Source: Eledone cirrhosa
Lineage: Eukaryota
Length of the DNA stretch: 64,000 nucleotides
Assembly (NCBI GenBank): GCA_964016885.1
Contig: OZ024742.1
Location: 119,908,001-119,972,000, forward strand
Direction: 5' to 3'
The first letter of the stretch is position 1; the number at the start of each line of letters is the position of its first letter. This document shows, one piece after another, positions 514-42,000 of the stretch. Position numbers and translations under genes: made by a program. A model generated the notes under the pieces. It had not been told where the DNA came from and searched no databases. It saw nothing but the letters and a program-made list of their open reading frames with translations.

Positions 514-6096
<5,583 letters not shown>

Positions 6097-14975: not shown

Positions 14976-15099
14976 TTAAACTAAATAAGGAGAATCCATG
15001 GCAGCAAAGCCAGCAGCAATACCTCCTTCATCCACACCAAGAACTTTAGTCCGCATTAAATGCCCAACTTGTTTGTTCATATGGATATTTTGTTCATCT
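14976..15099 (-). CDS. GSS: GSS last coding exon (DEQNIHMNKQVGHLMRTKVLGVDEGGIAAGFAAMDSPYLV*)
   Basis: tttcag acceptor; typical GSS C-terminus; TAA at 14978-14976. Confidence 0.96.
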
Positions 15100-18000
15100 C
15101 TGAAAAAGAAAATGGAATATATATTTTTGTGTCAAATATTGAGTAGGAGACAATTTTCTTTAAAAATACAATAGTATATATAGCAACCATTCAATTTTCC
15201 TTTTATTCTTGCAGAGTTTAACAATTAATATCTAATCAATAATATATATATATTGCTATATTTTCATTGAAATTAACAATAATATACATTTATCACCAGG
15301 GAGAAATCTAAAAAAAAAAACAGATCCTTTGCATTTTTTATTTTGGTAGTGAAAGTCCTCAGTAGACAAATGGATATAAAGTCTACTCTGGCACCTCAAC
15401 ACCTTGCTAATCAAACTTTTCCAAGAACAAGCCTTTCCATTATTATTGGACCCATTTATGGTGCATGTCTTTAAGATCCAATACATTATGTAACAAAGTT
15501 ACTGCAATAGAAAATTAAATTGAAATTCCAAACAATATCAGTTTTTAAATTACTTTTCTTGAAAAATAAAATTGTTGAATTCATCTTTTTCATATTGAAG
15601 AGCTTGAATTATTAATATTTAAATATTTTTAGCAGAATAACATCAATATTAAAATTTATAGCAACAAAATTCTTAGTAGAATTAGTTGGTAATTACAGGA
15701 CAACAGTTTTAAATACATGAACATATTTTGACAGAAATTTACAATTCATAAATAGAAAAAGTAAGTGAAAGATCAGTATATTTCAGCTTCACTCTGTGGA
15801 TAAAATGGTGAACAACCAGTGACACCCATTGCATTAACCGCTATAGCTTGCAGGGCTCCTTCCTCAGGTGGGATATACTTCTCCCAATTTTGTGGAAGAA
15901 AACTAATTCAGAGACTACGGACACTGGCACAAAAAAGAATTTTCTTTTCATGAACTCAACAAAACTATGTAGGGCTTAATGTTTGAATCTCATCCACTTT
16001 TCAGAAGGCAGAGTTAATTCTGTTAATGCTTACCCAATAATAACTCCATAAATTCCAAGTTCACTGACAACATCAACAATATCACTTGCTTTTTCAAAAA
16101 GTAATACATTTTTCTGTGAGAAAGGGAAGATTCTTTTCATCAAAATGTAAGCCATTCTCTCAGAAGAGTCTTTAATTTTAGACAGATATTCTTTGATATC
16201 TTCATTATAGATGTTATTACCTACAAGAAAATATACAAATTTAATGAATATTCGAAACACAATTATTATTTTGAAATTTTAATTCATAAAATCTTACAAC
16301 ACAATTGATTTAGAAAAAAGAAAGAATGAAATACTCAAATATATTTTATAGTATTTCAGATATAGCAACTATGCCAAACAAAGGGTTCAGAGAGCCCTTT
16401 ACTTGTGTCAAAGACTTGACAACCTCCTTAGTGCTGTGGCTCCACAATAAAATGCACCTGTCAACACTTTCTAGCAGGAAAAATGGGTATCAAATGATGA
16501 TTATATATATATATATATATATATACATACACACCCATGCTAGCGTGGAAGATGGACGTTAAACGATGATGATGATGATATGTGTATCTGACACCAATTT
16601 ACATTGGTGAGATAACAAAACTGGTGCTTTAAGAAGTCCCTTGTATCCAGTTAGTAACCCCCTTGTCAATCTCACTAGGAACCAGTGATTCACTTATTTC
16701 CCAAACAATAATTTGAAATAAGTAAAAATAAGCACATCAGCTTTTCAACAATAAAAAAGGCATATTTGTCAAAACAAAAAAAAAAGAAGCACCAATCATA
16801 TGGCTAGTCAAAGATAGAACAGTTCCCTAAAGAAAGGATAAAAATATGCAATGTATGACAAATTCCATATATTATTCATCCAACAACTACAACTTTGACT
16901 TTTGTCAGGCACAAAGACAGATATGCCACATATCCTACTAAGTCATAACATATTTAATAGTTTGTTGCTTTCAACATACCAGTAATTATCTCTGTTGCTT
17001 TTAACATATCAGCAAATTATCTCTGATGGATTTATTTTGTCAAGATCGTACGACAATATAAACAGAATACAGAAATGAAAGTGTGGCTGAAAATGTCTAC
17101 CTTGTGGTAGCTGGTATAACATGAACTTAATGAGAAATGGGCACAACAACCATCACATGTAGTGCATAATCAGAAACCTGATGCTGAGTATTAATGTGAG
17201 TTTCCTGAGGGCAAAATAGGGAATTAACTCAACACTGCAAATTAATAAATCATCAATTTTACATTGATACTGCTACATACAGTAATAACTTCTTCCTGAC
17301 ACCCTTAACATTATCAACCATCTTGCCAACAACAACCCTGAGCACTTTTTTGAATTCTGTGTGTCTAACACCTGTAGATATGCCTACAAAGTCAGAAAAC
17401 AGCACAGCTCCCCTGACTTTATGAAACATTTTTTCATGCTCAAAGTTGCTGAAGTATGGAACAAACTACCTGCATCAGTTGTTATCCTTTAAGACCTCCA
17501 TGCTCCCTGAAATTCGCCAACACTACACCTGATCTTCCTCCATACACATAGTCATGATATACACACAGATGTGTGTATATCATGACTCATACACTGTTCA
17601 CTTTCCTGACATTTGTACATTATTCTATGTACTATACATGCACCTTTGATGAGTTGTAGTGCACCTGGGCACTGCATACAATAATTTCATTATTATCATT
17701 ATTATTATAACCTACATTTACTATTTTCATTTAGGTGGAATTGACTGTTTAATCATTTTGTGTCCATATACATTTAAATAAATTTTGAAAATAATATTTT
17801 GGAGGATTCAGTGAAATAAGGATGGACTGTTTTAATTTAAATATGAATTCTTTAAAACAAGAAGTGGTCTTAGTTGAGTTGGTATCAAAAGGGTTAAAAG
17901 TTAAGTAACTTAGCCAGAGACGATGCAGAACTAAAGATAGATGCACCAGAGCTAAGGATAGATGGCACCAACCTCTCTATTAAATGTATATACCCTATAA

Positions 18001-21000
18001 ACTACTCCAGCAATGCACAACCTTTCTCAGAAGGTGGACCACAAAATTCATGAGGAAGATTTCAGGGACCATTAGGCAACACAGTAGATCATAAAATATA
18101 CCATGGACCATCACAACTTTAGTGTAAATCCCTGGACTATCTGGTACACATTGTGCATCACTAGACTAGTCCATCACCACAGTCATGAATGGAATATATC
18201 TATTCTTTAAATAATCTTTTCATGAGTATACTTTGTGAGCTTTAAGAGCTAAAAATGTCAATATAAATAAACTGGCTTAATGTAAGCCTACAAAACATTG
18301 TTACCCCATCATTACTTTTATCAGTGGGTGCAGGCATACTGAGTAGTTAAGAAGTTTGCTTTGTAATCATGAGTTTCAAGGTTCAATCCCACTGCATGGC
18401 TTCATGGCCAAGTATCTTTACCATAGCCTTGAGTTGACCCAGACTTTGTGAGTTGAATTAGGTAGATAGAAACTGTATGGAAGCCTGTTGGATGGTCTAT
18501 ACCAGCAATTTAAAGGTCTGGCCTTGTCACATATTGTGTCATGTTGACTCTGCCTGAGAATTATATTAAGGGTACACATGTCTATGGTATACTTCAACCA
18601 TTTAAACATTAATTCATGAGATGAGTGTTCAGTTGATAGAATGACTGAATTCTCACCTTTGAAACCAAGGGAGGGCCTTTATCAGTGTCAGCATTTTACT
18701 GTTTGTTGATTTTGGTCAACTCCAGTATTATCTCACACCATGCCCCACTTCATATCATTTATTTGTATTACATGTCTATGAAAGTGCATTTGTCTTTTTT
18801 GTACATTAAATACATCAGTCAGCAACTTTGATACTCAAGCTATCTCAGCTCATTGGGCTTAATCTGTTGCTCAAATTCATATCTTTTATTAATTTTTGTG
18901 GAAAAAAAGACAAACTATTGTAAATATTATTAAAAAATAATTAAATAAAGTAATGACTTTTAGTTAATGCTTACCTCCACCTTCTCTCTGCGGTTTCAAC
19001 ACATAACTGGAAGGGTTTTCAAGTGCCATACTGACAGCTTCCTCTCCTTCAGGAGTCTTACAGAACATTTAAAAAAAATAAATAAATAAAATATAACTTT
19101 CTCTTTGTTTTTGTATTTGTTTAACAATACTCTTCATGCAAAATCATTTGTTGAAACAGATATTATACTTTGGAAGGGTCATATTGTCAATAAAAACACA
19201 TGCACCAGTTGGATTTTTACTTCAGTTTTATTATTAGTTAGGTATGGTTATTTGTCATCTGTTTACTAAACTAATGGCAGAATGAATTACTGACCTAATT
19301 AATTATAATTGAAATGAAGCTGGTGCATGTTTTTTATTGGCAACATAAGCCTCCTAAAGTACCTTTCTCTTACAGTGTCTTGTAAAAAGAAATTAATTCT
19401 AAATCTAAACATAAAGCTTTCACATTAGTAGTGTACATTGTTTATAAATTCTTTTGATGCCAACCTAGCCAAAAACATATTGGATTCTATGAAACAAAAC
19501 CACCAATTTTAAAGGGTTCCTATTTATATTAAAAGCATACAACATAACTTTATATAAGAACCATATATTTAGTTGCTATCTTAGTAATGATATAACTTTA
19601 ATTTTAGTAAATCCCTCCAAATACTTCATTAATTAATTGAAATGGAGTAGAATATTTCATTAGAAATATGGTCACTAGAGGGTTAAAGAGTATAACGTAT
19701 CTTTTTTTAAATCTTTGTCTATTATAAAACTTGGAAGAACAAGCCTCTTTTAGATATGAATAATTTGTTAGGAAATAGATAGCTATGAAATATTACAATT
19801 TGGTCCAGAAAAGCAAACCTGTTATCTTTTCAGACTAACACAGGCTCTGCTGCACTTTGGGCTGAGGAGGGTAAACTCTCCAAATATCGGTCACTCTCCA
19901 ACAGGTTTCCAGTCAAGCTTGTAGCTGTGGAAACTTCTGGTGTCCTTAAACCTAGGACCACCTCCCTACTTATCATCATCGGTGCAGAATTGGCTAGCCA
20001 CAGGTGTGAGCCTTGCGAGCTGGAATGGCTCTTCCAGCCCATCTCCCTCACCATCGTCTGGGGAAACGCCTTCTCTATTCTGTCCGCCGGAGCTGCGGAG
20101 TGGCCAGCATGTGGGACCCCATTTGCTCATAATAGTGAGAGATGGGGAGGGTTGGAGGGATGGAGGTGATGACAGTGGGAGTTTGGTTTCTCTGTGTTCT
20201 GACCTGGTGTACATGTATGTGTAATTTTACACTTATTTTCCAAGAAAAGACGTTATCGTGTATCATCATCATCATCGTTTAACGTCCGTGTTCCACGCTT
20301 GCATGGGTTTGGACGGGGGTTTTTCCACTTGAGGCAAGAGTGATTGTCTTGCTCGCATAGGACTGTCTGGCAGGTTTTCTACAGTTGGATGCCCTTCCTA
20401 ACACCAACCACATTTACAGTGTGGGTCTGGGAGGTTTTTACTGTGTTACCTACACGGCCACATTACAGCGTGGACTGTGTGTTTTTTTGTCGTGACACCT
20501 ACACGATCTCATTTGTTTGTATATATATATATATTGATAAAATACCTGAGCAGTTTAACAAATCATTCATAATTGATAAAATACCTGAGCAGTTTAACAA
20601 ATCATTCATAATTGATAAAATACCTGAGCAGTTTAACAAATCGTTCATAATTGATAAAATACCTGAGCAGTTTAACAAATCATTCATAATTGATAAAATA
20701 CCTGAGCAGTTTAACAAATCATTCATAATTGATAAAATACCTGAGCAGTTTAACAAATCGTTCATAATTGATAAAATACCTGAGCAGTTTAACAAATCAT
20801 TCATAATTGATAAAATACCTGAGCAGTTTAACAAATCATTCATAATTGATAAAATACCTGAGCAGTTTAACAAATCATTCATAATTGATAAAATACCTGA
20901 GCAGTTTAACAAATCGTTCATAATTGATAAAATACCTGAGCAGTTTAACAAATCATTCATAATTGATAAAATACCTGAGCAGTTTAACAAATCATTCATA

Positions 21001-24000
21001 ATTGATAAAATACCTGAGCAGTTTAACAAATCGTTCATAATTGATAAAATACCTGAGCAGTTTAACAAATCGTTCATAATTGATAAAATACCTGAGCAGT
21101 TTAACAAATCGTTCATAATTGATAAAATACCTGAGCAGTTTAACAAATCGTTCATAATTGATAAAATACCTGAGCAGTTTAACAAATCGTTCATAATTGA
21201 TAAAATACCTGAGCAGTTTAACAAAATCTAAATTATCAGATAGAATTTTAATACAGCTGCTAAAAATTGTTAAAGATTTTTTTTTTTTTTTTTTAAAGTT
21301 AAGTAAAATGCAAAGCATCAAAAGCTAGAAAGTTATAAATATGAATCCATATTATAAATGGAAGTCTTAAAATATTGTAAAAGTCACATACAACCATATC
21401 TTAAATAGGGAAGTTTTAAATTATTCTAGAAGTGACATATTACCATATTTTAAATGGGGAAGTCTTAAATTATTCTAGAAGTGACATATTACCATATTTT
21501 AAATGGGGAAGTCTTAGATTATTCTAGAAGTGACATATTACCATATTTTAAATGGGGAAGTCTTAAATTATTCTAAAAGTGCGATATTACCATATTTTAA
21601 ATGGGGAAGTCTTAGATTATTCTAGAAGTGACATATTACCGTATTTTAAATAGGGAAGTCTTAAATTATTCTAAAAGTGCGATATTACCGTATTTTAAAT
21701 AGGGAAGTCTTAGATTATTCTAGAAGTGATATATTACCATATTTTAAATGGGGAAGTCTTAGATTATTCTAGAAGTGACATATTACCATATTTTAAATGG
21801 GGAAGTCTTAAATTATTCTAAAAGTGCGATATTACCATATTTTAAATGGGGAAGTCTTAAATTATTCTAAAAGTGACATATTACCATTTCCAAGCTGTAT
21901 TGATCTACAAATGTATTTCTTAACCCCTGCACTCGAGATGAATCTGGAATAAATTTTTCCAAAGCTCCAGGACGAGATAGCTCCTGCTGAATTTTTTTGG
22001 TTCCAGCTAAATGATAATTTATAGATGGGCATTTGATAGCAAATGAAAGTTCAATCATTTTGCGAGTATCCCAATCCTGAAAAAAGAGTTAGTTTATGAA
22101 GGTCAATAAATCAATCAGTTTTATTTTATCATTCAAGCAATCAACATATTATTTTTCAGAAGTATCATCTATCAATGTGAGGTCAGAGAAATGGATTGTG
22201 AGGTTCATATTTTTCAAGCCTTGTGAATGTAATATGATATAGCAACACCTAGAGTTTGAAACAGATGTGGTTTTGGTTTCAACAAGAGAGGCAGGCATGG
22301 CTATGAGGTTAAGGAGCTTGCTTCACAATCACATGGTTTCAGCTTTAATCCCATTGCACGGCACCTTGGGCAGGTGTCCTCTACTATAGCTTAGGATGGA
22401 CTAATACCATGTAGTGGAATTTGGTCGATGGAAACTAGAGAATCATCATCATCATCATCGTTTAACGTCCATCTTCCACGCTTGCATGGGTTTGGACGGG
22501 ATTTTTCCCACTTGAGGCAAGATTGGTGGTCCTGCTCGTATAGGACTGTCTGGCAGGGTTTTCTACGGCTGGATGCCCTTCCTAACACCAACCACGTTTA
22601 CAGTGTGGACTGGGAGGTTTTTACTGTGTTACCTACACGGCCACATTACAGCGTGGACTGTGTTTTTTTGTCGTGACACCTACACGACCACTGTATGCTT
22701 TTTGTCATGACACCTACACAACCACTTTACAGTGTAGACTGGGCATCCATTGTTGTGGCTCCAAGATGACCATTTTATAGTGTGGGTTGGGGACATGGGT
22801 GGGGGAGATGCATGGGGAAATAGGGAGGTAGATATAGGGGTGAGGTGATTACAATATGGGAGGTGCATGGAAAGAAAGGTGGTGCATACATTCTATTCAG
22901 TATATTATAGCATTATCAACAATAAATAGACATTTAGATATTTTACCTGTGGTGATTTATAACTAGCAGGTGAGTAACCATCTCTAAAATATACAACAGC
23001 AATTTCTAAACCATTTCTACAAATAAATATAATTGATTATTCAAAAAATGATAACAAAGAAATTAACATGAAATAGCACACTTCAAAACTAATGAAATAT
23101 ATGTACAGTTATGAAGTAAAATGAAGTAAAACTTGTTTTTAATTTTTATGGTGTTTACAAACAGATAAGATGTGATGAAAATAATTTCACCATTAGAACA
23201 AGATGGATAAGGTTTCACAGCGCTAGAATCACTCCTTCATAGTCAGCCTATGAACTTTTCAGTCAACCCTCATAAGGACATTTGTTAAATAGATTTCTGT
23301 TTATAAGCAGCTAAACATTTTATTTAGTAACAAATATAAAATTAGCATCTATGTATGTATATGTGTGATATCTGAATACGTATCCTCCACCTAAACTATT
23401 TTACCCTCCACCTCTTGATCCTGACCAACAGGTTGGAGAATATATTACCCCATAGGATAGCAAGGGAGATGCGCTGGAACAGCCAATCCACCTCGCAGGG
23501 CTCACACCTACGGGTAGCCAACTCCACTATGGTCGCCGTGAGTAGTGATATGGTCCAGGTGAACTATCCAAAAGTTTGTATAACAAAGGCAATGAACGAC
23601 TTTACAGCTGCTTAGGCAGGGAAGTGTTCAGTAGTTGGAAAGAATTAGATCCTGTATAACTTTAAATATGAATAATGACTAAGTTTTCATTCTGCATTCT
23701 TTCTGTCTGATACATTTTCCAATGAAGGTCACTGAGAACTCACTAAGTTAAATAAAATAAGTAATCTAGACCAGATTGACACTTTAAGATACTTCAGTGT
23801 TCTGAGTTCAATACCTGTCATGGCTAACTTTGTTTTTCAGCTTTGAGGATCAATAAAAACATTTATCAAAAATATATTGATTTCAATTAAATCCCTACCA
23901 ATATAATTTGTCCCTCTACATGCTCTGACTACTAAATTGTCAGTGGAAAAATAGCTTACAAAAATTGTATTTTATCCTGAAGGATACATTTGAAAGCTTA

Positions 24001-27000
24001 CTACATAAAGGTTGGGTTGAGTCTTCAGTTGTGTCAAGACATGACAACCTCCCTAACACAGGTGCCAAGATAAAATGCAATCAGCAGAGTGTAGAATCAA
24101 ATACAAGTGAGAAGTGGGTCACAGGCCCATCTGAGCACTTGCTACAGCACGGGAACATATGTGTGTGAGAGACAGGTTCACAGCCCATCTAAGAGATCTG
24201 TAGCTTTACTTGAGTACTGACTCAATATTGATGAACCATCTAACTCTTAATACTAAGGAAATGGATGTTTAATGATGATGATGATAACTATCCACTAAGA
24301 GGTGAACATTGATGAAAAGTTTATGAATAAAGAAATTGGTTGAGAATTTTATTCTTCAAAGATATGAGAATTTTGAAGTATGAAGAATAAATAAATGGCT
24401 GAATTTTAATGAAAGGTTAAAAAGTTTGTGGCTATTATATTAAAACATTGAAACAACTATTAAACTCTGTGTTTTGAAAATGGAAGATTAAATCCAAATT
24501 AATACTTTTAGATTGAAATTTGAGTAACAAAGAATATATTAGTAAAGTTTGGAGTATATTGATGAGCCATGAAGAGAAATAAAATCTAACAATTTCAAAG
24601 GTGTCCTTTACTAAAGAACTCTCCCAAGTCAATGTTTCGTTACCAAACCGCCCAAAGCCACCCGAAAAAAATTTTAGTTCATGTGACCAAACCACCCAAA
24701 ACCGCCTGTGCTCACACATTCATATTTAAATGAGAATATCAGAGCAAATCTCATTAGTACATTCGTGAAAATACGTGATTATACTACATAAACAATTGAG
24801 CTACAGTTTTGGACAAATATCGACGTGTTATTTTAATTCTGTGAATTTTGGGAGATTTTTTTCCAAATTTGTTCCTGTTGTGTTTTGAAAATTTTTAATT
24901 CTGACAAAAAATGGATACCAATTTCATTCAGTCAAGCAGCGAGTCAGAATTTGAAGGATTTTCTACTGAAGACCTTGAAAAATCTAACTATAACTGAAAA
25001 AAAAAAAAGCATGAATCCGATGTTTCATTTTCCGAAAGTGAAAACAGCGATAAAAAAATGAATTGGCCCCTGAATGGAGTAAAAATTTAAAAACTGTTTC
25101 TTTCAGTGATTTTTTTGAAGAAACTGGACCAAGTCACAGTCTATCCCAGGAGAGCAAAGCTTTAGACTATTTCCTTTTACTTTTTCCTATGAGCTTGTTT
25201 GAAATTATTAAAAAAACCGTTACGCTGAAAGTAACCAAAGCGAGAAAAAGGATAGTTTGTGGTTTCCCACAAGCTTAAATGAAATTAGGGCTTATTTTGC
25301 CATAACTATTATTATGGGCATTAGAAAGCTACCCAGAATTACAAATTACTGGAGTAGCGATGAACCCTTTGGAGACAAATATGTCTCAAGTATAATGACG
25401 AGGACACAGTTTTAAAATTGATGCAGTATTTACATGTAAGAGACACGAGCAGTACACCAGTACGTGGAGAACCAAACTATGATCCCTTATTTAAAATAAG
25501 ACCCCTCATTGATTGTGTTCAAAACACATATAAAACAGTTTACAAACCTGGGAGATATTTATCTATCGATGAGGGTATGGTGGGCTATAAAGGCCAAGTG
25601 CGTTTTCGACAATATATGCCAGGAAAGCCCACGAAATGGGGTTTCAAAGTTTGGAAGATTTGCGAATCGAATACTGGGTACTGCTCTGGATTTGAATTTT
25701 ATACTGGCAAAAGAGACAATTATGTAAGTCAGCATGGCCTAGGGTATGATGTGGTCTGGAATTTATCACTTCCATTACATAACCAGGGCCATATATTATT
25801 TTTTGACTGGTTTTTCAGTTCGGTCAAACTTGCGGAGAATTTAGATACTGTGGCAACACATACATGTGCTACAGTGATCGCTAATAGAAAAGGACTGCCG
25901 TTGGATATAAAAAAAGCAAAATTAAAAAAAAAAGGTGAAATAATTCAATGGCAGAAAGGAAATTTGTTAGCAACCGCATACAGAGATAAGAGGCAGATCA
26001 ATTTTCTGTCTACCTGTGCACGGCCACATGTGGATGAAAATGGCACCCCATTTGTAAATCTTGATTATAACAGGTACATGGGTGGTGTAGATCGGATGAA
26101 TCAGATGATGTCTTATTACTCAGTTGGCAGATCGGGGAATAAATGGTGGCGATACCTGATTTGGTATATAGTAAATATGAGTATTACTAATGCGTTTATA
26201 CTATATACCAAATCGGGACCGGCTCGAAAGCGATGAGACCATCTGCAGTTCTGAGCAGATATAGAAACACAATTAAGAGCTGGTTATTCATAAAAAAAAA
26301 TAACTGTAGGGAGAAAAAACAAAGCCTGCCAGAGAGATATCCCTCTGAATTCAGCCGATCTCCATAAATTAGAAAAAAAAAAAAAAAAAAAAAAAATCGA
26401 GGGTCACAAAAGGCAGTGTCGTGAATGCCTTCATCAAAAAAGCAAAGCTCCTAGTGGAAGGTCTGTTGAAACAACTTTCCAATGTGCATTCTGCAAGGTT
26501 GCATTATGTAGAGCAGGGTGCTTTACAAGTTTTCATGATAGGAATATTGTTTGATTTGTATATATGTGTGATTTTATTTTATTAATATTTTCAAATTTAC
26601 TTCGTTTTTCTTTTTCTTTATGTGTAATTTTAATTTACCTGTAAGGTGAGTGACGAGTTTTGATTAATTTCTTTTGTAAATCATTATTGTATATTTCTGC
26701 ATATCTATGTATGTGGGAGAGCTTATTTAATCTAGTTGATGGTGTGTGTGTATTTTGTTTTCTAGTTTTCTTCACAGACAAATTCCAGTCTTTCATTTTA
26801 TTTATACCTTTACGGTACACCTGTCTTTTGTGTGTTTAAATTCACCTGATAAATCCAGTAATGTGCACAACTCTTCTATAGTAAAATGTTGTTGTATACC
26901 CAATTGAATATTAGCTAATAACCCGTTTTCTATAGTGATGTTTGAACAAAATTTAAATAATTTCATATTTTGTTGAATTTACCTGTATTTACCTGTAATT

Positions 27001-30000
27001 AGAGTCACTTTGAGACAAAAATTATGGAATAGAATTGGTTGAGAACCTTTCGTTAAATTTTCTTCCAAAAATCACATTAATATGTTGATAAATAAAAAAG
27101 TTAGAATTGTTTAATGAAACCAGACTAAATTTATGATTATGTTAGAAATTAATTGAAACACATAAGGGGTGTATTTTGGTTAGAAATATGGTAACGAAAG
27201 GGTTAAAGAAATGTTAGATTTTTCATCTCAAGACAAATGTATGAAAATGGGATATTTGTTAAGAAACATTTTATCTGAATCAATTCCTATTACTATATAC
27301 CACTAGTAGAATATTTTATATCTAGTGATTACCTATTAAAAACAGGATTTTATTTCAATTTTTTGGTATATAACATCATGTTTGACTTGATGCATGAATG
27401 TGTTAACTTTATAAACATAAATAATAGACTTAAATGTATTGTAATATGGTAGTATGACAAAAACTTTAGAGTACCTTTAGTAGGATTAGACTTTATACTA
27501 GCACTGGACTTAAATATGTGTATGAATATGTGTGCACGTGTATACAACTGTGTGTGAACATATATGAGTTTCCATTTTATAATCAACTGCTCAAGAAAAT
27601 GATAAACCCCAAACTCACACAATAAGATTATTTTGTTCATCCAAATGTCCATTTTGCTTTATATCTTCAAGTGTTTGACGAACAACTGATATTCTGGGAT
27701 TGATTTCAAAAATTTTATGTTCCACCCATTTTTGGTCAAAGATATTTCGCTCAGTAGATGAAACTATAAACAGGATTACTGAGCTGCAATATAATTAGTT
27801 TTAAATATTTCTTTAAAAGTTTAGATTTTTAATAAATTCTTAAAAGAAAATACATAGAAAACTAATTTAGAGAACATGTCTTCTCCATTCTGTCCACTGG
27901 GACCATGAGGCAGACTAATCCTTAAGCTTAGTAGTAAATACAGATCTTCTCTCTCACACATAGTAAACAATAACAATACATTATAACAATTTCAGTCATT
28001 AAGGTATCTAATGTTAATCAGAATAATTATTATAGCAATATAAATTATAGATATTTTACATTGGGTTTTCAGAGTAGCAGAAGGTAAACTTAAAATTTCA
28101 ACTTTATGAAATACATTCTTTCATATATCAAGGAAGCTGGATAGACCCTCTGTTGACTTGACGAGTATTTCAGTTGACTGATAAATAAGATTGCCTGCTC
28201 CCAAAATTAACAGACAAATAGCTGGGTATTCCACAGACATATGAATCCCATTAACATAATGCTCTCTGAGAATTATGACATAATGTGTGATAAAACTGGC
28301 TCTCCATCCAATATGCTTCCAAACAGATTGCATCAACCCAATTCTACTCTCAAGGCTTCAGTAAGCCCAAGACATATGCCCACGATGCCATGTAGAGAGA
28401 TCAAACCTGGGACCTTACGATTACAAAGTGAACTTGTTAACCATTTAGTTATGGTGAATTCACGAATCAAGTTAAATAACTATAGAAATAGCAAATTTTC
28501 AAACAAATTTACACGTGTTTAGCTTCAAGTCAACCCTGATCAAATAATTATCATAGGATATAAAAAATATATATCTTAAAGTATATAAAAATAGAAACTG
28601 GTATAAAATTGTGATTAGAAATTATTTATTTATTTATTTATTTTAATATTTTGTATGTTTTTATGTAGAATAATATCTGCTTATCAAAATTATTTTTGTT
28701 GTTTAGCCTCAGAATAGACCAGTGATCAAAGGCTTTTCATCCATGACCATCATTCTCCAATATATCCAATGAGCCAATACATTATCGGTAAATTGACCAT
28801 CAGGCCAAATACATTGTTGGTAAACTTATTGTAGTGTTTTTTATCTATGGAGTATATACATCATTAACCCTTTAGCATTTAAACCTGCCATATACCTGGC
28901 CAGAATTCTCTCACCTCTTTCTGTTCAAACTGGCTGTAACCAGCTGGTTATACTGATGTTAAGGTATTATTCCCAAAGTAAATAATATCAAAATCTCATA
29001 GATTTAATATTATGTGAGATAATTATGTAAGATAAAGCCTTTACCATGAAAATACAATAGTAAATATAGAGTAATGTAAATACTAAAGGGTTGAATATTA
29101 TTGAAAGTTTGTATTAGTGGAGTAAATATTTGTCATTTTATTTACAACGGAAAAGAAATTCAAAGTTCCAAACTGGAAGTTCTTAGAGATCTTGAATTTA
29201 AAGAAACAATCAAGAAAGGAAGTAATAATCAAACAACACTAGGGTGGTTTTTCACCTGGGAATTGAATTCACAACCTCATTGTAAGTCTAATGCTCTAAT
29301 CATCTTCACAGTATATCAGAAATTCCACATAGAAAAAAGAAAATATACAAAGATAGTACAGTGTTCAAATTTATTTCAAAATCATGAAATAGTGGATTAT
29401 TTAAGAGATTTGTCATTTAAGAAAATGTCTTCCCTCTTCTAATTTAAATGTTATTTTTTTTATTACATTTATTTATTTCATTTTTTGTGTTTCTTTTTTT
29501 TTTAAATAGCTTTGATATGTTTTTCATGTATATATCAGGTAAATTTTATATGAACAAATTTTTGTCTTTGAATTTATTTTCAATATTAATAAAATACACT
29601 GAATTTAATCTTTGAATAGTGTTTAGCAATATATTAAGTCTGTAGACAATATATTTAGTCTGTAGACAATGAATTTAGTGTTTAGCAATGTATTTAGTCT
29701 ACAGACAATGAATTTACCAACAACATATCTAGAATGACAATAAATTTACTGACACTTTATTGGCTTGCAATATAACTGGAAGCCAATAAAATTACAAAAC
29801 CATGGAAGAACAGATGTATTTACAAACAACACAAGCAGCTTAAGGCTATTTTCCTAATCAAAGTAGAAGTTAGCTTTGTGAGCTCCATAGCATGCTCAAT
29901 ATCCCTCATGGAGAGCTTTTTAAGACAATATTTTCTGGTTGGATGCTATTACTAGTATTAACCCTTTTAGTCATCTCTTACAACATATTGATAGCGAGTA

Positions 30001-33000
30001 CCTATTCTAAGCCAGATATGACTGCAGAATTTTGATATATTTACTGCAAAGTAATTTACAATGATGACTTTACTGTATAGTATCAGCTGTCGCTGTAGAA
30101 GTAGTTGTAAGTACTGTGAGAGTTTCAACTTGCTGCAGCAACATAGAATAGGTTACTTACTTTGCTTTCCCATAAAGATTCCATGCTTCAGCCATTCCCT
30201 CTGCAAGTCCATAGGCTGGATCATTGTTCGGAATCTTCCAAAACACAAACATAAGACATAGCATTGGAGAGATATGAAAGAGAAGGAATGAGGGAGAAGA
30301 AAGGACCATCCTCATTATCACAGTTTAATGTCTAATTTCTATGGGTTAGATGGGTTGTCAGGTCCTGAGGTTAGATTAGTCAGGTGATCATGCTCATGTG
30401 CTCCCTTTTGGCTTGGTTTCTACAGCTTGATGTCTTCCTAAAGCCAACCACTTTACAGAATGTACAGGGAACATTTTATTTTGATTCTGATATCACCATC
30501 TTACAGGGTGAAGTGGGTACTTTTCATCATGACACTAGAATAACCACTTTACAGAGTTGACTAGGTGCATTATTCTTGAGGCAAAGAAAAGTAGATATGG
30601 AAAAAGAAGGAATGATGTAAAAAGTTAAAAAGTAAAGGAGATGGAAAGAAGAAAAACATATTTGTGGCATAAATATTTAATGTAATGAAATATAAAAAAT
30701 AATCCCCCCAAATAGTGATTTCAAATGAATGTTGCCATGCCATGGGCCTCAATACCTGGTGGAGCTGTAAAAGTTCCATTGTGAAATACAGCATGTCTTC
30801 TCTCTAAAGGTTTCCCATTGAAATATTTTTTCAACTTAGTTAAGTCAGATACAATACAATACAATTCATTTCATACGCTTATCAAAGGAGTGCTTAATTA
30901 TACAATACAATACAATAAACAACAAAAATTATCACATTAACAGCACAGCTACATTTAGAATTCTTTTATAGGCAAAATAAGACAAATTCAACTGACTGAT
31001 GAAATAGTTCTTTCATGAGAGAGAATTTAGTAATGTGTCAGCTGTCAACCTTATAATCATAAGTTAACATTAACATATTTAATTTAGAGCATAACAATTC
31101 TAACTAGAAATAATTATGTGGCAAGAAAAATCAATATTAATTAATGACTAATATTCTTTTAATTAAAGAAGTATGCTTGAAATGTAGAGAGCGTAGTTTG
31201 GAATAGAAATAGAAGCTTCCCTGTAATATTTTGACTAAATATAATCTAATAATGGGGCATATAAACCCACTGAATGGAAAAAGATGGGAAAAAGCAAATT
31301 TCAGCAAGAGAGATAATTTCAGACAAGCATAAAATTCCAAGTAAATATACACATAGGTGTCCCGACAAGAAGTACCCACCACACACTATAAATGTGGTTG
31401 GCATTAGGAAGGGCATCCAGTCATAGAAAACCATCCAGAAACTCTCCTATATGAGCGAGACATGGTCACCTGACCCAACTTATCTCTAATTAGGACAAAC
31501 CCATGCTAGCGTGGAAGATAGACATTAATCGACGATGATACATTGATTGGCATAAAAATATAGAGTTGCTTTAAAAAATAAACAATTCAGAGACACCATC
31601 CGCAGAGAAAACAATAGTTGTATTTACAGGTTTTTCAAAAATCATTTCCAAGCTTCATTATAGTAAAAAGTAAAAAAAACAATTTTGCTGGACAATTCTT
31701 ATTCCTCTAAACCAACATCCACTAAGGTTTCTGTCCAATCTTGATTCTATCCATCCCCATCATTATACAGAGCCCAAATGTTATTCCCCTCTGTACTTTA
31801 AATAATTCTTTAAATAACTTAAATAACATTAAAAAGAAACAAAAAGTCAATTGAAAGTTTTAACTCTTTGTTACCATATTATGTATGTTTTTTAATTAAT
31901 TTTCAAAAAATTGGAGGATTTAGTATTATTAAGCTCATGTTTTTACTTAAAATTATAATTGTTTCTACTTTTGGCACAAGGCCATTATAATGAAAAGTCA
32001 TATGTACAAACACTTTAAACACAGTTTTATATCATAAAACCAAGGGTGGTTTCAGATGGGTTGGAATCAATAGGATTAGATAGAAAACAGAATATATAAT
32101 TATAATTAAAAATATCATTATAATATAGAAAAAGCATTGTTACATCCATAAATGATGTCTTAAAAATTTAAAGATTTTACCTGTTTATCATTTTCGTAAT
32201 AGCCTGCCAGTGCCATAGTATATCTGCATTAAATATATACATTTCTAAGTATATAATTCTTATTTTATGACATTTATGTACTACTATAATAATATATGAT
32301 ATGTCGGGTGACTTAATGTGCAACCCAGCAGGACAAAAACAAGAACTGTCAATAGGACAAATGAACCCAGCAATAGTGCAGTGGGACATAGAAATTTCCA
32401 AAACGACGAATGATCTTTGTTTTAACCCTTTAGCATTTCAACTGGCCATATCCAGCCAGAATTCTATTACCTCTTTCTGTTCAAACCTGCTGTAACTAGC
32501 CACTCATACTGATGTGAAGGTATTGTTCTCAAAATATATAATATCAAAATCTCATAGATTCAATATTATGTGAGATAAAGCCATTAATGTGAAAATACAA
32601 TAGTTAATATAGAGTAATGTAAATGCTAAAGGGTTAAGAATAATTTGTGAGTGGTTGACAGTTTTTGTCAAAACAACTGCCAAGGACAGGGGTAAATAGA
32701 GGTTCTTAGCATTGGTTGGGGCAACATATCTACACTTATTTTATTGATCCCTATTTGTCAAATTGCTAAGTTATGGAACATAAGCAATCAGTGAACATAA
32801 ACAGATACAAATTCAGGCTTACACACACACATATATATGACGGGCTTCTGCACATTTTCTGTCAACCCAATTTTACTGACAAGGTATTGGTAAACCTGAG
32901 ACTATAGTAGAAGATACTTGCTCAAGGTGTCATGTAGTGGGACTGAAATCAAAAGCATGTGGTTGGATTGAAATGTAAACTTAACCACACAGCCATTCCT

Positions 33001-36000
33001 GCATCTCTCTCTCTATATATATATATATACACATGTATGTATATATATATATATATATATATACATACATACATACACGTGTATATCGTATATATAAGGT
33101 AGCTTAGAAGTGTCACTACGAGAGGCTACTAAATGAGGAGAATAAGTGGGAAAAAGTCTGCCCCAAATTGATCCAATAGAGGGACCAGCAGTGCAAGTTG
33201 AAGGTAGTATAATAAGTAAGGCAATCAAAGATATGAAGCCAGGCAAAGCAGCTGGGCCTTCGGAGATAGTTGCTGAAATGCTGAAAGCATCTGGATCGGT
33301 GGGACACACTATGGTCACCCGGATAGTAAACCAAGTCATACAGAATGGGGCACATCATCATTAACTGCTACAAGGGTAAAGGAGATGCCTTAGATAGTGG
33401 AAACTATAGAGGCATTAAATTAATTGACCAGGTCATGAAGGTCACAGAAAGAGTTATAGCGCAACTAATTAGCGAGCGAATTGATCTAGAGGAAATGTAG
33501 TTTGTGTCAGGTAAAAGTATCACAGACGCTCTTTTTCTTGTACGACAATTACAGAAGTTCCTAGCTAAAAGTAAACCCCTATACTTAGCTTTTGTTGACT
33601 TGGAGAAAGCTTTTGACAGAGTCCCCTGCTCAATTATCTGGTGGGCTCTTAGAAAACTGGTGTTAATGAATGGCTTGTGGGAGCTATACAAGCCATGTAT
33701 AAAGAAACAGTCAGCAAGGTTAGAATTAACAACGAATATAGTGAAGAATTTAGCGTAAAAGTTGGTGTTTATCAGGGCTCTGTCCTTAGCCCCCTCCTAT
33801 TTATTATTGCCCTTCAGGCTATAACAGAGGAGTTCAAGACCGGCTGCTTATGGGAACTTCTATATGCAGATGATCTAACGCTCATAGCTGAATCAATGGC
33901 TGAACTGGAGAAGAAATTCCAAACATGGAAGCATGCCTAGAATCAAAAGGCCTTACAATTAACTTGTCTAAGACTAAAGTTCTAGTATGTAGGAAGGAAA
34001 ATAGGGCACTGGTCCCCTCTGGGAAATGGCCATGCTCAGTGTGTAGGAAAGGAGTAAGCAGAAACTCCATTTTATGTCCCAAATGCAAAGTATGGGTGCA
34101 TAAAAGATGTAGTGGGATCACAGGTAAGCTAACTAAGAACATAGATATTATATGTGGCCGGTGCTCAGGTGCAATAAGTAGCAAGTACCCACAGGATACT
34201 AGCTCCTTCCATTGCCCAGATGGTTCTATAGAAATAGTGGACAGCTTCCGTTACCTGGGTAACAAAATCAGTAGTGGTGGTGGGTGCTCTGAAAGTACAG
34301 TAACCAGAGTCAGAACGGGATGGAAAAAGTTCAGAGAGCTTATACCACTATTGGCTGCTAAAGGTTTCTCTCTAAAAATGAAAGGCAGGCTGTATGATAC
34401 CTGCATACGAACAGCAATGTTACATGGCAGTGAGACATGGGAATTGTGTGCAGAAGATCTGCGCAGACTGGAGAGCAACGAAGCTTGCATGTCCATTGGA
34501 TGTGTAATAGTAATATACATGAACGGCAAAGCATAAATGAACTAAGTGAGAAATTAGGAATAAGAGGTATCAGATGCTGTTTACTCGAGAGAAGACTACG
34601 TTGGTATGGTCACATGATGCGCATGAAGGACGACAGCTATATAAAAAAGTGCAGGGCGATCAAAATTGATGGAAGCTACGGAGTAGGCAGACCCAGAAAA
34701 ACCTGGGACGATTTGATAAATTCCAACTTTACACACTTACACCTCTCCAAGACAATGTCACTGGACCGAGAACTTTGGCGCTATGCAGTAATACAGAAGA
34801 CCCGCCTTGCCTAAGTACAAAGCGAAACCTACAGGCACCTCTTAACTAAAAATACACCCCATCCCACTACCCCCACCCCTTTCTCTGTAAAGTTATGTTG
34901 GTACCACAACATCCAGTCCTAAATAAATAAGGTTGTGTAGGTGTCATGACAAAAAAACACACTAGTCCACGCTATAATGTGGCCCTGTAGGTAACACGGT
35001 AAAAACCTTCCTGTCCACACTGTAAATGTGGTTGGTGTTAGGAAGGGCATCCAGCCGTAGAAAACCTGCCAGACAGTCCTATACGAGCAAGACAACCAAT
35101 CTTGCCTCAAGTGGGGTAATTCCCGTCTAAACCCATGCTAGCGTGGAAGATAGACGTTAAACGATGATGATGATGATATATGGATTATAAAGAAAAATAT
35201 ATGCACATCATGCATGCATAGTGAACAATTCTTTATGCTATGAATTCAAATTCCAGATGTCAACTTTGACCTTCATTTTTGGGGGTTGATAAAATACAGA
35301 ACTTGTCCAGGTCAAGTTTGTAGAACTGATAGGACTTTGGACAAGATGTTCTTGTAGCAAGCTACTTTCCTTTGGTGCATTGATACTCTGTCCGTGCATG
35401 ATTTGGCTAACTTAGGCCAATCGTTAGCTGCGCACGGATATGTATTTCAACTTCCACCCAAACGGAGAATTCCCCGCTTCTTTTAATAAATTCATTCTCT
35501 TGCAACTTTGACTGTGGTAAGGTAAACAACCATTTTGCTTTTGCTCCGCAACCATTAACCAAAATGTAATACAACATGTAACCACGGCCTGTCCAACACC
35601 TCAGCCAGTAGACCGTGCCATCTGCAATCTTAATTTGTTTGATTCATTTGTTTTGGCATGCCAGCCCAGCTCAATCCAGTTCTTTGTTAATAAATTATGT
35701 AAAAACCTGTTACAACAAACTACATATTGTCGATTTTATTATTATTACATGGCATAATATTATTTAACAGTTAAACTAGTTACTATTACTTGCTGCTATA
35801 TTGGTGACCTCTGTTGATACAATACAAACTACAAAGACAAATAATTGTTTCTACTTTAGGCACAAGGCCAGCAATTACCCAGTGCATTACTGGTACTTTA
35901 TTTTATCGACCCCGTAAGGATGAAAGGCAAAGTCAACCTCGGCGGGATTTGAACTCAGATCGTAAAGGGACGTAACTATGCTGGAAAGCATGGCGTCCGA

Positions 36001-39000
36001 CCCTCTACCGATACTGCCAATCCACAAATAATAACTATTAACATTATTTTAGAAACTGCTAGACTCTTTCTGTTCAGTGTTTACTTAATCTAGTGTACAG
36101 CTTAACACTCTACACCAGTACCTTTAGTCAAGTTCAGTTTATTGCAAGCATTCAGGCCAGGTCTCCGGTTTAAGGATACATTCCTCCATCCAGCCTACTA
36201 ATCTTGGAGGCTCTGTAAAGTATCATGGGAATATTATTTCTCTCCTCTCTGACTAAACAGTTAAAAAACTTGTTTCAAAAGTAAAATAAGTAATAGAATA
36301 ATAAATACAATAAAATGTCATGTACCTATGTAGTGAAACCATGTTCAATGCTAAACCAGCAAAGCTACTTGCAATTGTGTTGATTTCAATCTGTTTTAGA
36401 TGGAGGTTTGTAGCAAAATCTTCAATGGTTAAACTGGAGGATCCTTTATCACAGTGAAGCATGTAATCACTACGAAGTATTCCAAGGCTTAAATGCTAAA
36501 AGAAAAAAAAACATCATCATTATCATCCCATTCTCAGGTTAGACAGATCAGGTGACCATATGTCACTCATTTGGGCTTGGTTTTCTATAGCAAGTACTGG
36601 GAGCATTTTTTGTGACACCAGCACTACCTAATTACAGGGTTGAGTGGGTGCTTTCTTTTGTAAGGTAATAGAACTAGTGCCATGACAAAAAAGCACCCAG
36701 TTCACTCTTCAAGTGGTAGTGTTGGTGTCATGATAAATAAATATATCTTGTAAGACTGTCCCAAGTCTCTAGGCTCCTCAGGCTGCTGATTATTCTGATT
36801 ACACTGGCGCTAAGCAACTGAGAGATAAGCCACCCTCCAGGACAGGATGCCAGTCTATCACTGGATTAAACCTAAGATGTTACTGGTACTTATTTTTCTT
36901 TTTTTTTCATCTATGTGGATTGGACAACCATGAATGAAGTGTTTTTCTCAAGGATACAATGTTTCACCTAGACTGGGAATTGATCTTACGATCATGAACC
37001 CAATACACTAATCACTATTCCACATGCCTTTACTTACATCAATTAGCAAAGAAATTTATTTACATATTACAAGGGGAGCTAAAACAATGAAGGATGACAA
37101 TTACATTAAGATATTCTGATAGATTGTCAATTCTCTTAAACAGTTTAGGATGATGAACTATCTGTCTATCTAACTATCTGTTTGTTTATTTATTTAATTA
37201 ATTAATTAATTTATTTATTCATTTATTTCATAAACATTTTAAAACAATTATTTAGTCAAGGAAATGAGATTGAATTAACAGTAAAAGGTAGAGCAACAAA
37301 AAAAAAATGCTTTGCAGTATTTAGTTAAAACTTCCTATGTTCTAAGTTCAAATCCTGCTGAAGTCAACTTTGCCTTTCATCCTTCTGGAGGTGATAAAAT
37401 AAAGTACCAATTAAATACTGGAATCTCTCCACAAATTGCAGACCTTGTGCCAATGTTAAAAATAATTATTTAGTCAAGGAAGATATGACAGTGTCTGTAA
37501 CACATTTATGGCCTCTGAGATGGATGAGATGAAAGGAGGAGGATGTCCTCAAACTGGAGATCTGGCCTGAATACATCCAAACAGTGGTCTCTAATAGAGA
37601 CCACTGTTTATCTCATGTAAGTTAAATGCCAAACAATTATGTTGTTTAATTAAAAACTATGTTTATGAATTGTTTATAAAATATGGTTGCATTTATTGTG
37701 TAGATCGCCAACATTGGGAAAGATGTCAATGTCTTTCACACATCTGGAGTCCTTCATGCCCTTTGTTTAGTGAGTTTTCTATGGCTGAATGAGTTTTCTA
37801 CACCAACTACTTTACAGATTGTACTGGGTGTGTTTATCATGTAGATAACTAACAGTTGTTATGCTCTTGATGCAGCTGAAGAGTTCTCTCAACATTTGTT
37901 GACATAGTTTCTATAGCTAGATGCTTTTCTTATCACTAATTACCTTACAGGTTGTACAGGGTACATTTTTCGTGAGGTTATGTCATGCTGGGAGGGTCCC
38001 CAGCTTGATTTCTATGGATAGAGGCCTTTCTGACACCAATCACTTAACAGAGTGTGCTGTGTGTTTTATCATGGCACCAGCATTAGAGAAGTTGTCAATC
38101 ATAGGCTCAATTGAATAACCCTCTCCACTCTATAGGGGGGTGGGGTGGGGTGGGGGTAGGGGTTTATATATCTCAAAACTTTACATAGTAATTTTCCTCT
38201 AAATTCTTCATTATTTTCAATATGAATTGAAAATCATAGGCAGTGTCTTTCATTAGAAATATGACAATAAAAAGGTTATTAGTTGTAAAAATATTTTGAG
38301 AAATAAAATTTCTTTCTTGAGAAAATAATACTATTAATTACATTGTGTAAATCAATTAATATAATAAATTCTAACCTGCTTTCTTTTACCGTCTTGCTTA
38401 AGGGTAGCTTCATAGATATCCCATAAGTTTTTAGTGAAATCATCAGCTTCTAAGGTACTGAAGTAACAAAATAAATTCAACGAGTAGTTAAACATACAAG
38501 CACAAATAATTTTCATTTCACAATTCTTATTCCACAAAAAGCCAATTATACCAACCCAATTCTATTGACCTAATTATACTGAAAGAACTATTCTTTAGTG
38601 GTTTTAACATCAAAGTTATTTTAGAGCATGTTTTTATTCTTAATTACACTATGTTATCACTAATTAAACATAGCCAGTTAAATTCATATTATATGTAAAC
38701 AAGCCTTCACCAAAAACAATGTGTTTACCAAATCTATAAGAAGATATTGTCTTTAGTATCTCAGCATATGGGGATAAGTAAGTGCTGATGAAATGTTATG
38801 TCACATGCATCTACCACTCTTGTCCCAATTACAGCTTAAAATACTCATAGTGAGACTAAATGTATGTTTATTATTTATAGACATAGGAGTTCATTATGTC
38901 TTTATTCTGAATTATGTTGTGTCAATGTTATTGTTAATTTAGGGTAAGATTGCTGTATGTATTTGTAGATAAGTCATACATAATTTACTCTATTTTGAGT

Positions 39001-42000
39001 AATGGAAATTTAGGAAACATACATTTCTATTGCACATATAGAGATCAAATTCTTTTTCTCTTCACTTTTCAATCAATATCCAACTGTTTTAATACGAAAC
39101 TCATTTTATTTCGAAGTATCATATTACATATGTATGGAATTTTAACATTTTTGTTACCATATTTGTTTACAATAAAAATTAAGCATTTAGAGGGATTTAT
39201 TAAAATTATTTTTTATGAGAATGGCTTTTATAACATAAATATCTTTTATATCAAATGACATAAGAAAATTTTATCTGGGTGGTTTTATTTCATAAAACCA
39301 AAGGTGGGATAGGTATTAAAAGACTTATCATATAAACTCGAATATAAGCCAAGAAATTATCAACCATCTTGTCAACAACAGCCCTGAGTACCTTTTTGAA
39401 TTCCATGTGTCTAACACATGTGGGCATACCTACAAAGTCAGAAAACAACACAGCTCCCATGACTTTCAGAAACATTTTTTCACACTCAGAGTTGCTGAAG
39501 CATGGAACAAACTACCTGCATATGCTTCCTAAATTTCCATTGTTAGCTGTCGAGACACTGCATCCTTTAAAACCTCCATGCTTCCTGAAATTCGCCAACA
39601 CTACACCTGATGTCCCCCCCTCCGTACACATGCACACATGTATATCATGACTCATACACTGTTCATTTTCCTTACATTTGTACAATATTCTATGTACTAT
39701 ACATGCACCTTTGATGAGTTGTAGTGCACCTGAGCACTGTACACAATAATTTCATTATTATAACAAATAATTGTTTCTACTTTTGGCACAAGGCCAGCAA
39801 TTACCCAGTGTATTACTGGTACAAATAATATTTAGATATCAGTAGTTAAATATTGTCATTAAGTTGAAAGTAAATTATTTTACTAAACTTCTAATAATTC
39901 TTCATTATTTTGATAAAATACAAAGGCAATGCCAGATTAACTTAATATCAATTAACATTTGCTGTGGGCCATGTATTTTTAGAGGCCCCATGCTAAGTGT
40001 TTTACACTATAGTACTTTACTGCCTTTAACTTTTATATCATGTATTTTTAAATTTAAGATTCCTTTATATTATCTGCTATAGGCCATCACTAACCTAATT
40101 CACCATTGCACAAAGACAGTATATTCTTGTCAAAAACATTATCATAAAAGAAATAGCTATGCTACAAAGCTATGACTGTTTGCAATGCGGCATTAATTAG
40201 ATTCTATGGGAAACTATTTATCATCTTAAATCAATCTTTAGTCTGTATTCCAGAACAAATTTCAGTTATAATTTAGATTGTATGTTTATTACACCTAAAA
40301 TATTCTCCAATATTTAAACAATGGAGCCTTTGTGTTGTTTAAATCAGTGGTTGCCAACCGGTGGCCCGAGAAGAAATTTTCCACAGAAAAATGTGGACTT
40401 TATTTGCAATTTCTATGTTTTATTAATAATAAAACAAAAATAATATTTGGTTAAAATATATTTATAACACCCCTAAAAAATATTTCTCCTCTGTAAAGAA
40501 ATAACATCCATGAAAGTATTTTACACATGTGTATCATCTATCGACAATATGACACATGTACACTCCAGTATTGTTTCAATAAATGGAAGTTCTCTGATCA
40601 TTAGGGTCGGACGCCATGCTTTGACGCATAGAGTTACGGTCCTTGCCATTCTGAGTTCAAATCTCGCCGAGGGTAACTTTGCCTTTTATCCTTATGGGGT
40701 CGATAAAATAAAGTACCAGTAATACACTGTCAGGTCGGGTGACCTTGTCTTGCTCATACAGGAACTGATTTTGGCTTCGTTTCTACAGCTGGATGGCCTT
40801 CCTAACACCAACCTCATTTACAGTGAGTGCTGGGTGCTTTTTTCCGTGGTGCCTACACGTCCACTTTACAGTGTGGGCTGGGTGATTTTTTGCTGTGGCA
40901 CGTCCACGACCACTTTGTAGTGGGAGGGTGTGGGGCATATTGTCTATATGTTTCAGCTTGTACCCATGGGAGGTCGGGTACTCTGTATTACTGCGTGACA
41001 CCAGAGGTCACAAAATTTGTTTTATTTTTAACATGGTGGATACCTAAGTGTATTTGTGAGTGAATAACAATAATATTGTAATAATATCATAACATTAATA
41101 TTCAGTTTGCTTGCAAGCAAATAACCTCATAGACACCATGTGTTAGATGACGTCATCCTTTTGTTCCAGCGGTAGCTGAGAGAAAACAATAGACAATTGT
41201 TTCGGAATGTTTTGCTCCTTATCAAGATTGTGTATTCTGCTCACTGTTACCCACTGGAACTGCTGAGAATACATAGTATTCTCAAATGTATACATCAGCT
41301 GATTAACCTCATTTTAATTTTCAGCAAAGCCAGCCATAAAATCGTTGCTAAGCAATGACAACGGTGACAGCAGTGACAACAATGACTTTCCTAATTCTTA
41401 TGTCAAGGGTAACAAGTTTATCCACAGTCTTTATAAAACTGATAAAAATAGTATGTCACACTGATTACTGGTAGATATGTCTATGACCTCAACTATAAAC
41501 TGTTTCTAGGTCAATTTAATTTGAAAACAAAAGCAAATGGTGATACATTATTTTGACATGACAGTGTATAGAATCTAATGTTCTCATACATAGTATGTTT
41601 TCATAACTGATTAAACACCTTAAATATACCCAATTATCTTAAGCAGTTTATAGCAGTTTATAGCAGTTTATATATTCTGCTTCAGTACATCAGTATAACC
41701 CAAGTCAAGTTCAGCTTCAACATATGCCAGCGTATTTTGTTATTTACACTCTGAACTGTGTAGAATATTTGTTAACAAAATGAATTGTCTACCTGTTGCA
41801 AATAATTTTGAAAAATATTACAGAGCTTGGATGAACTGAGGGAGAAATTGCATGTAAGAGGAATCTGATGTGGTGTGCAAGAGAGAAGACTGTGTTGGTT
41901 CGGACATGTGATGGACATGGATGATGATCACTAGAAAATCCAGTGGAAGAAAGCTACAGTAGAGGTAGAAAGACCTGGGCAGAAGTGGTGAGAGCTGATC

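Follow-up and report, generated by a model that had tools for sequence, protein, structure and literature searches.

The 5' splice site of coding exon 9 in the glutathione synthetase (GSS) gene of Eledone cirrhosa forms the start of a 49-nt minisatellite, which reiterates it nine more times within the intron. GSS is expressed and is spliced at the first of these donors, because a spliced contig carries exactly that junction. The best explanation, to which we give a probability of roughly 0.8, is that the gene tolerates a junction-spanning minisatellite: splicing takes place at the first donor, and the nine spare sites probably go unused and are excised as part of the intron. Positions below are those of the window, the whole stretch of 64,000 nucleotides that was analysed, and exons are numbered as coding exons (exon 9 is the ninth of 12).

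The repeated donor of GSS exon 9

A gene model built from tblastn matches and inspection of exon boundaries has 12 coding exons and 488 amino acids, no internal stops and GT-AG ends at 11 of 11 introns. The protein is 80% identical to that of Octopus sinensis and 73% identical to that of Argonauta. For the 64 residues of exon 9, identity to O. sinensis and O. bimaculoides GSS reaches 92%, and a search of the whole 3.0-Gb genome returns a single match to this exon. An acceptor-like tract lies immediately 5' of the ATG, which suggests that an untranslated exon is likely to precede the coding exons. Two O. bimaculoides GSS protein entries leave the family consensus right after YSLEM, the position of the exon 9 donor; these are likely to be gene-model errors in which exon 10 was missed. 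The features discussed here are as follows, with a caret marking the exon-intron junction.

14976..47831, minus strand: GSS coding span (tblastn with GSS proteins plus exon model)
21885..22076, minus strand: GSS coding exon 9, 192 nt, 64 codons, phase 0, equivalent to human GSS residues 279-342
19057..21884, minus strand: GSS intron 9, 2828 nt, GT-AG, containing both minisatellites
18975..19056, minus strand: GSS coding exon 10, 82 nt, encoding VLKPQREGG (human residues 346-370), acceptor partner of the 21885 donor
21347..21887, minus strand: 49-nt minisatellite (TRF: 11.1 copies, 91% matches, no indels, score 865)
21877..21887, minus strand: authentic 5' splice site, ATG^GTAATATG, last exonic base 21885
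21436..21838, minus strand: nine intact pseudo-donors, A(T/C)G^GTAATAT, at 49-nt steps, last 'exonic' base 21836 to 21444
21346..21394, minus strand: degenerate edge unit, 14/49 differences from the consensus, with a decayed donor (21395, ATG^GTTGTAT)
21867..21869, minus strand: in-frame TAG at read-through codon 6 (GTA ATA TGT CAC TTT TAG), intron nucleotides 16-18
20533..21225, minus strand: separate 39-nt minisatellite in intron 9 (TRF: 17.8 copies, 98% matches)

The first array unit includes the last three exonic nucleotides (ATG), with the array edge at 21887 and the junction at 21885/21884; the initial 46 nt of the intron make up the rest of the 49-nt unit. Downstream of it, 9 of 10 units keep an intact GTAATAT, and the corresponding pseudo-donors have their last 'exonic' bases at 21836, 21787, 21738, 21689, 21640, 21591, 21542, 21493 and 21444. 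Seven of these read ATG and two read ACG before the junction, while GTAATAT follows it in all nine; the seven match the real donor exactly from -3 to +7. The sequence-only reading had described an array that multiplies the exon 9 donor about nine times, together with the sequences of the real donor, the 49-nt repeats and the TAG of the first unit, and all of these statements are correct. Judged from the sequence, the array as a repeat is far beyond chance, and the repetition of the donor merely follows from a unit start that lies 3 nt inside the exon. In units 1-10, 0-5 of the 49 positions depart from the consensus, so the inner units are homogenised, and the eleventh, at the edge, has diverged. 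The array probably arose through slippage or unequal exchange, for which a short ATGGT match 49 nt downstream may have been the seed, and it probably turns over as other minisatellites do, with homogenised inner units and a decayed edge unit.

The array is not an assembly artefact, because the contigs of one DNA run agree with it to at least 99% and because their depth ratios (0.85-3.2) track the 31-mer multiplicities of the assembly (1.0-4.0) among the 8 pieces listed out of 14; this run is possibly from the assembly's own sample. On copy number within the species, the one DNA sample that covers the array matches the assembly, and a RAD-seq run gave no reads there. A search of the species' own genomic DNA revealed no second copy of the array, and one other genome match was rejected as an unrelated repeat with 67% identity. 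An A/T run (21267-21307) follows closely on the 49-nt array and precedes the 39-nt one. Elsewhere, the window holds a 5.1-kb TA-rich microsatellite tract (514-5663) and tandem copies of a 225-433 nt element (59617-61754) that looks like a locally duplicated interspersed repeat.

We also estimated the chance expectation for arrays that start at a donor. Twenty 10-kb stretches (199,800 bases) of contigs C1, C2, C3 and C11, picked evenly rather than at random, were searched for arrays whose period is at least 15 and whose copies number at least four, excluding those with low-complexity units. Thirteen were found, 6 of which contain a GT site as good as the exon 9 donor. Scaling to the genome gives ~195,000 arrays, and with an assumed 100,000-200,000 donors and an interval of 5-30 nt, an order-of-magnitude estimate is that ~30-400 of them begin at or near a donor by chance.

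Use of the first donor and the predicted fate of decoy products

The evidence for splicing comes from one run (X4) in the form of assembled contigs, which has no RNA record and which we read as RNA because a contig in it is spliced at both sides. This contig (1646 nt, depth 18.3) is 100% identical to the window over 21885-22079 and spans exons 8, 9 and 10. Its 298 nt past exon 9 fit exon 10 (82 nt), exon 11 (187 nt) and 29 nt of exon 12, and it would end at 15071, which is the start of another contig. The junction joins the 21885 donor to the 19056 acceptor, so the acceptor named in the sequence-only reading is confirmed by this contig as well as by the gene model. No decoy junction occurs among the two X4 contigs at 21240-22300, where contigs drop minor forms and nonsense-mediated decay (NMD) presumably lowers them. 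The second of these contigs (79 nt, depth 2.34, 21634-21712) lies within the array and has no loose ends. It may be pre-mRNA or DNA background, and it is indistinguishable from an extended exon. X4 coverage of the bin with the 39-nt array is also low (1.33 vs 0.68).

The preference for the first site probably reflects exon definition, in which the most upstream of a series of identical donors is taken, by analogy with the human F7 gene. Borensztajn et al. 2006 describe a polymorphic 37-bp VNTR in F7 intron 7 (IVS7) whose first site is used exclusively, and whose other copies do not compete even when strengthened and take over if the first site is mutated (PMC1557585). The same paper attributes exclusive use of the first site to the LMNB2 and PDGF minisatellites, and use of the two nearest pseudo-sites as well to CBS and the interferon-inducible gene 6-16 (PMC1557585). 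The F7 mechanism was shown there in mammalian cells, not in molluscs (PMC1557585).

If any copy served as the donor, the product would be a protein of 363 aa that ends in VICHF and lacks exons 10-12, so that the lid domain and the KPQREGGG G-loop would be removed. This agrees with the earlier proposal that a decoy donor adds a premature stop and costs the protein its glycine-rich loop. For the nine intact copies, the premature stop would lie 300-692 nt upstream of the last junction. The exon-junction rule for NMD places the limit at 50-55 nt and is based on vertebrates; a literature search on NMD in cephalopods yielded nothing usable among the 10 of 21 matches listed. Any rare use of a copy would bring in the TAG and likely end in clearance by NMD, so that the array would cost the gene little and would not be regulatory. 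Some leakage to the copies is plausible, because the real donor is weak, seven of the copies are identical to it and none is masked.

The TAG behind the exon 9 donor is itself ordinary, because early stops are found in most GSS introns and after most random starts, and in-frame stops lie upstream of nearly all human latent donors. An in-frame stop occurs within 49 nt of read-through in 9 of 11 GSS introns, and in 4 of the 10 others it comes before codon 6. Of 20,000 random intronic starts, 32% run into a stop by codon 6 and 63% by codon 16. In human introns flanked by coding exons, more than 98% of latent donors lie downstream of an in-frame stop, and latent donors are activated by heat shock in human cells (PMC3510495). 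The latent 5' splice sites of that study, discussed there as 'suppression of splicing', are likewise unused donor-like sites in introns that lie behind an in-frame stop and would be NMD substrates if used (PMC3510495). The suppression mechanism has been put forward for mammals (PMC3510495) and failed to account for F7, and the octopus copies differ in being tandem duplicates of the true donor.

These data bear on a second explanation, in which the array acts as a leaky rheostat, a form of regulated unproductive splicing: a real share of transcripts would be spliced at the copies nearest the exon, gain the TAG and be degraded, and copy number or stress would thereby tune GSS. The weak real donor, its identical and equally accessible copies and the truncation expected from each of them are all compatible with such a role, as are the use of nearby pseudo-sites in CBS and 6-16 (PMC1557585) and the activation of human latent donors by heat shock (PMC3510495). 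Against it, the assembled transcript uses the first site, the strengthened copies of F7 still fail to compete (PMC1557585), and the unit sequence differs in a related species. Extra copies would also add little, since one stop is common to all of them and the human cases use only the nearest copies. Nor does the stop stand out, given the early stops of other GSS introns and of random starts. We consider this explanation unlikely. Of the earlier suggestion, the part on what decoy use would do, with its stop and its truncated protein, stands. The functional part, in which copy number tunes GSS output, lacks support: the true junction is the only one seen, and an early stop is typical of introns. 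One paper on human CBS reportedly ties its VNTR, by its title, to lower enzyme activity, which would favor a rheostat.

Donor strength was assessed from pairing with U1 snRNA. The genome has 42 matches to U1 snRNA, and the 5' end is canonical in 12 of the 12 loci read. With this U1, the exon 9 donor forms five contiguous pairs (-5.1 kcal/mol) and ranks last in strength among the 11 GSS donors, the other 10 ranging from -5.5 to -10.6 kcal/mol and the array motif from -5.1 to -5.3 kcal/mol, where duplex energy is a rough stand-in for a trained splice-site score. The acceptor of intron 9 ends in AAG, so that the motif of this intron is weak at both ends. AAG replaces YAG at 2 of 11 GSS acceptors, those before exons 6 and 10 (30235-30237 and 19057-19059). 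Masking of the pseudo-donors by RNA structure was rejected: in folding calculations the unpaired probability is 0.43-0.60 at the copies vs 0.53 at the real donor, which makes them equally accessible. The true donors of this species and of the relative described below (GTAATAT and GTAGTAT) correspond to the U1 complement minus one base and thus permit a bulged register. An 8-bp register of this kind offers no gain here (-4.7 vs -5.1 kcal/mol for the 5-bp register).

U1 snRNA genes lie in tandem arrays with a period of ~2674 bp (9 matches at C2:180973544-180995099 and 19 matches at C1128:1476-49773), and there are more U1 clusters near C2:27.9 Mb and C2:169.4 Mb. Two other modes of splicing were rejected for the array. 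A recursive splice site juxtaposes YAG and GT. The units instead read TG^GT or CG^GT, and 31 nt separate their YAG from the GT that follows. Minor-class splicing does not fit the motif, as compared with the familiar consensus.

The nine adjacent G^GTAA motifs might also act as a sink that titrates U1 snRNP and so alters splicing or guards against early polyadenylation, as the sequence-only reading had raised. Each copy, however, forms just five contiguous pairs with the canonical U1, and when every GT site in the pre-mRNA of the GSS coding region is given a rough Boltzmann weight, the pseudo-donors account for ~0.01% of the total. Of the 1713 intronic GT sites that GSS has beyond the array, 199 pair equally well or better, 30 of them within intron 9. 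This low weight and the 199 competing sites rule out a meaningful U1 sink on these estimates, and we regard the idea as extremely improbable. Eighteen of the 30 sites in intron 9 belong to the 39-nt array, whose 18 CAG^GTATTT motifs pair with U1 more strongly (-7.2 kcal/mol) than the real donor does and serve as an internal control. This second array appears younger than the 49-nt array, and each of its units contains an acceptor-like and a donor-like junction. Its unit length is a multiple of three; in the frame that follows exon 9 it contains a TGA, and the other two frames are open.

Remodelling of the array in a related species

A related species, represented by short contigs of a single run (X5) from which its array was inferred, has a similar repeat at the equivalent place. 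Its exon 9 carries at least five substitutions among those listed, and the pieces of its array are mostly 90-95% alike. Its true donor reads ATG^GTAGTATC, with a 4-nt insertion that is also present in one inner unit (tables read by hand). The array has other unit variants and another arrangement, which indicates that its sequence is turning over rather than being conserved. From these comparisons the array is probably older than the split between the two species and was remodelled in each lineage, and the intronic half of the donor seems to change along with it. Retention of the array in a second species is compatible with selection and also with simple age.

In one contig of the relative (116 nt, depth 14.4), the final 33 nt of exon 9 and the donor follow a unit that ends in TTTTAG. 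The unique flank is similar in depth, at 15.2, and a shared piece has a depth of 30.3. The relative thus seems to carry the end of exon 9 twice, and the extra 33-nt copy is a candidate for an in-frame micro-exon of 11 codons.

In a third explanation, the copies are raw material for splicing and could serve as backup donors if the real donor mutated, or become exonised between a YAG and a GT. Every unit has a YAG at +16-18 with a GT 31 nt later, the relative's 33-nt candidate lies behind such a TTTTAG, and amphioxus 'mirages' have been proposed as a route to intron gain (PMC3087553). In F7, the copies replaced a mutated first site (PMC1557585). In this octopus, a backup donor cannot rescue GSS, since the first unit carries the stop. 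A 31-nt piece would shift the frame, and the polypyrimidine tracts are short. On balance, we find a role as raw material very unlikely.

These elements can be combined in a bolder scenario. The true donor is the weakest in the gene and forms the first unit of a minisatellite with fast turnover, which would rewrite this donor and its competitors together. A share of GSS transcripts that depends on stress or copy number would be spliced at the nearest copies and degraded, and glutathione synthesis would be tuned in this way; in the sister lineage, the same process would have built the in-frame 33-nt micro-exon candidate. We hold this scenario to be quite unlikely.

A known class of minisatellite in a cephalopod

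The array is a junction-spanning minisatellite, a class already known from human and amphioxus genes and found here in a cephalopod. We describe this class, of the F7 type or mirage, by six features: a head-to-tail unit of 10-160 bp, overlap with the junction, a retained splice motif, use of the upstream site, copy-number variation and homogenised inner units. Five of the six are present here; on the sixth, variation in copy number within the species, the data are the one DNA sample that matches the assembly, and the array of the second species differs.

The closest counterpart is F7. Both genes have little exon in the first unit (4 nt in F7 and 3 nt in GSS) and use the upstream site, and F7 has 4-8 extra identical donors where GSS has nine (PMC1557585). 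The GSS unit is 49 nt long, AT-rich and from a mollusc, and every copy lies behind one stop, whereas two F7 pseudo-sites would give none (PMC1557585). The 31-bp VNTR of CBS intron 13 and the minisatellites of 6-16, LMNB2 and PDGF resemble the GSS array in reiterating a donor at an exon boundary (PMC1557585). The nearest pseudo-sites are used in CBS and 6-16 according to this source, whereas no such junction is seen for GSS, on weak data (PMC1557585). The CBS unit, given as c.1444_1467+7, is also mostly exonic (PMC2630376), whereas the GSS unit is mostly intronic.

Tandem repeats at exon-intron boundaries are also described for human paralogs (PMC2812944). The amphioxus mirages in Adh3 and the globins BflGb6 and BflGb9 leave splicing apparently undisturbed and have been proposed as a route to new exons as well as introns (PMC3087553). 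Like the GSS array, they copy an exon-intron boundary in an invertebrate and have homogenised inner units and diverged edges; unlike the mirages as described there, the GSS array copies just three exonic nucleotides (PMC3087553). Among the matches listed in a literature search, no title or abstract opening mentions this locus or a cephalopod case, and searches of the literature by gene name gave no further VNTR-donor cases.

In the most likely case, the array matters little and is one more junction-spanning minisatellite, in a cephalopod. It nevertheless provides a natural test of whether the F7 rule that the first donor wins holds in a mollusc whose true donor is very weak. If decoy use did scale with copy number or stress, then the array would be a repeat-length dial on an antioxidant enzyme with a single match in the genome, similar to the role that the CBS VNTR has been claimed to play in humans.
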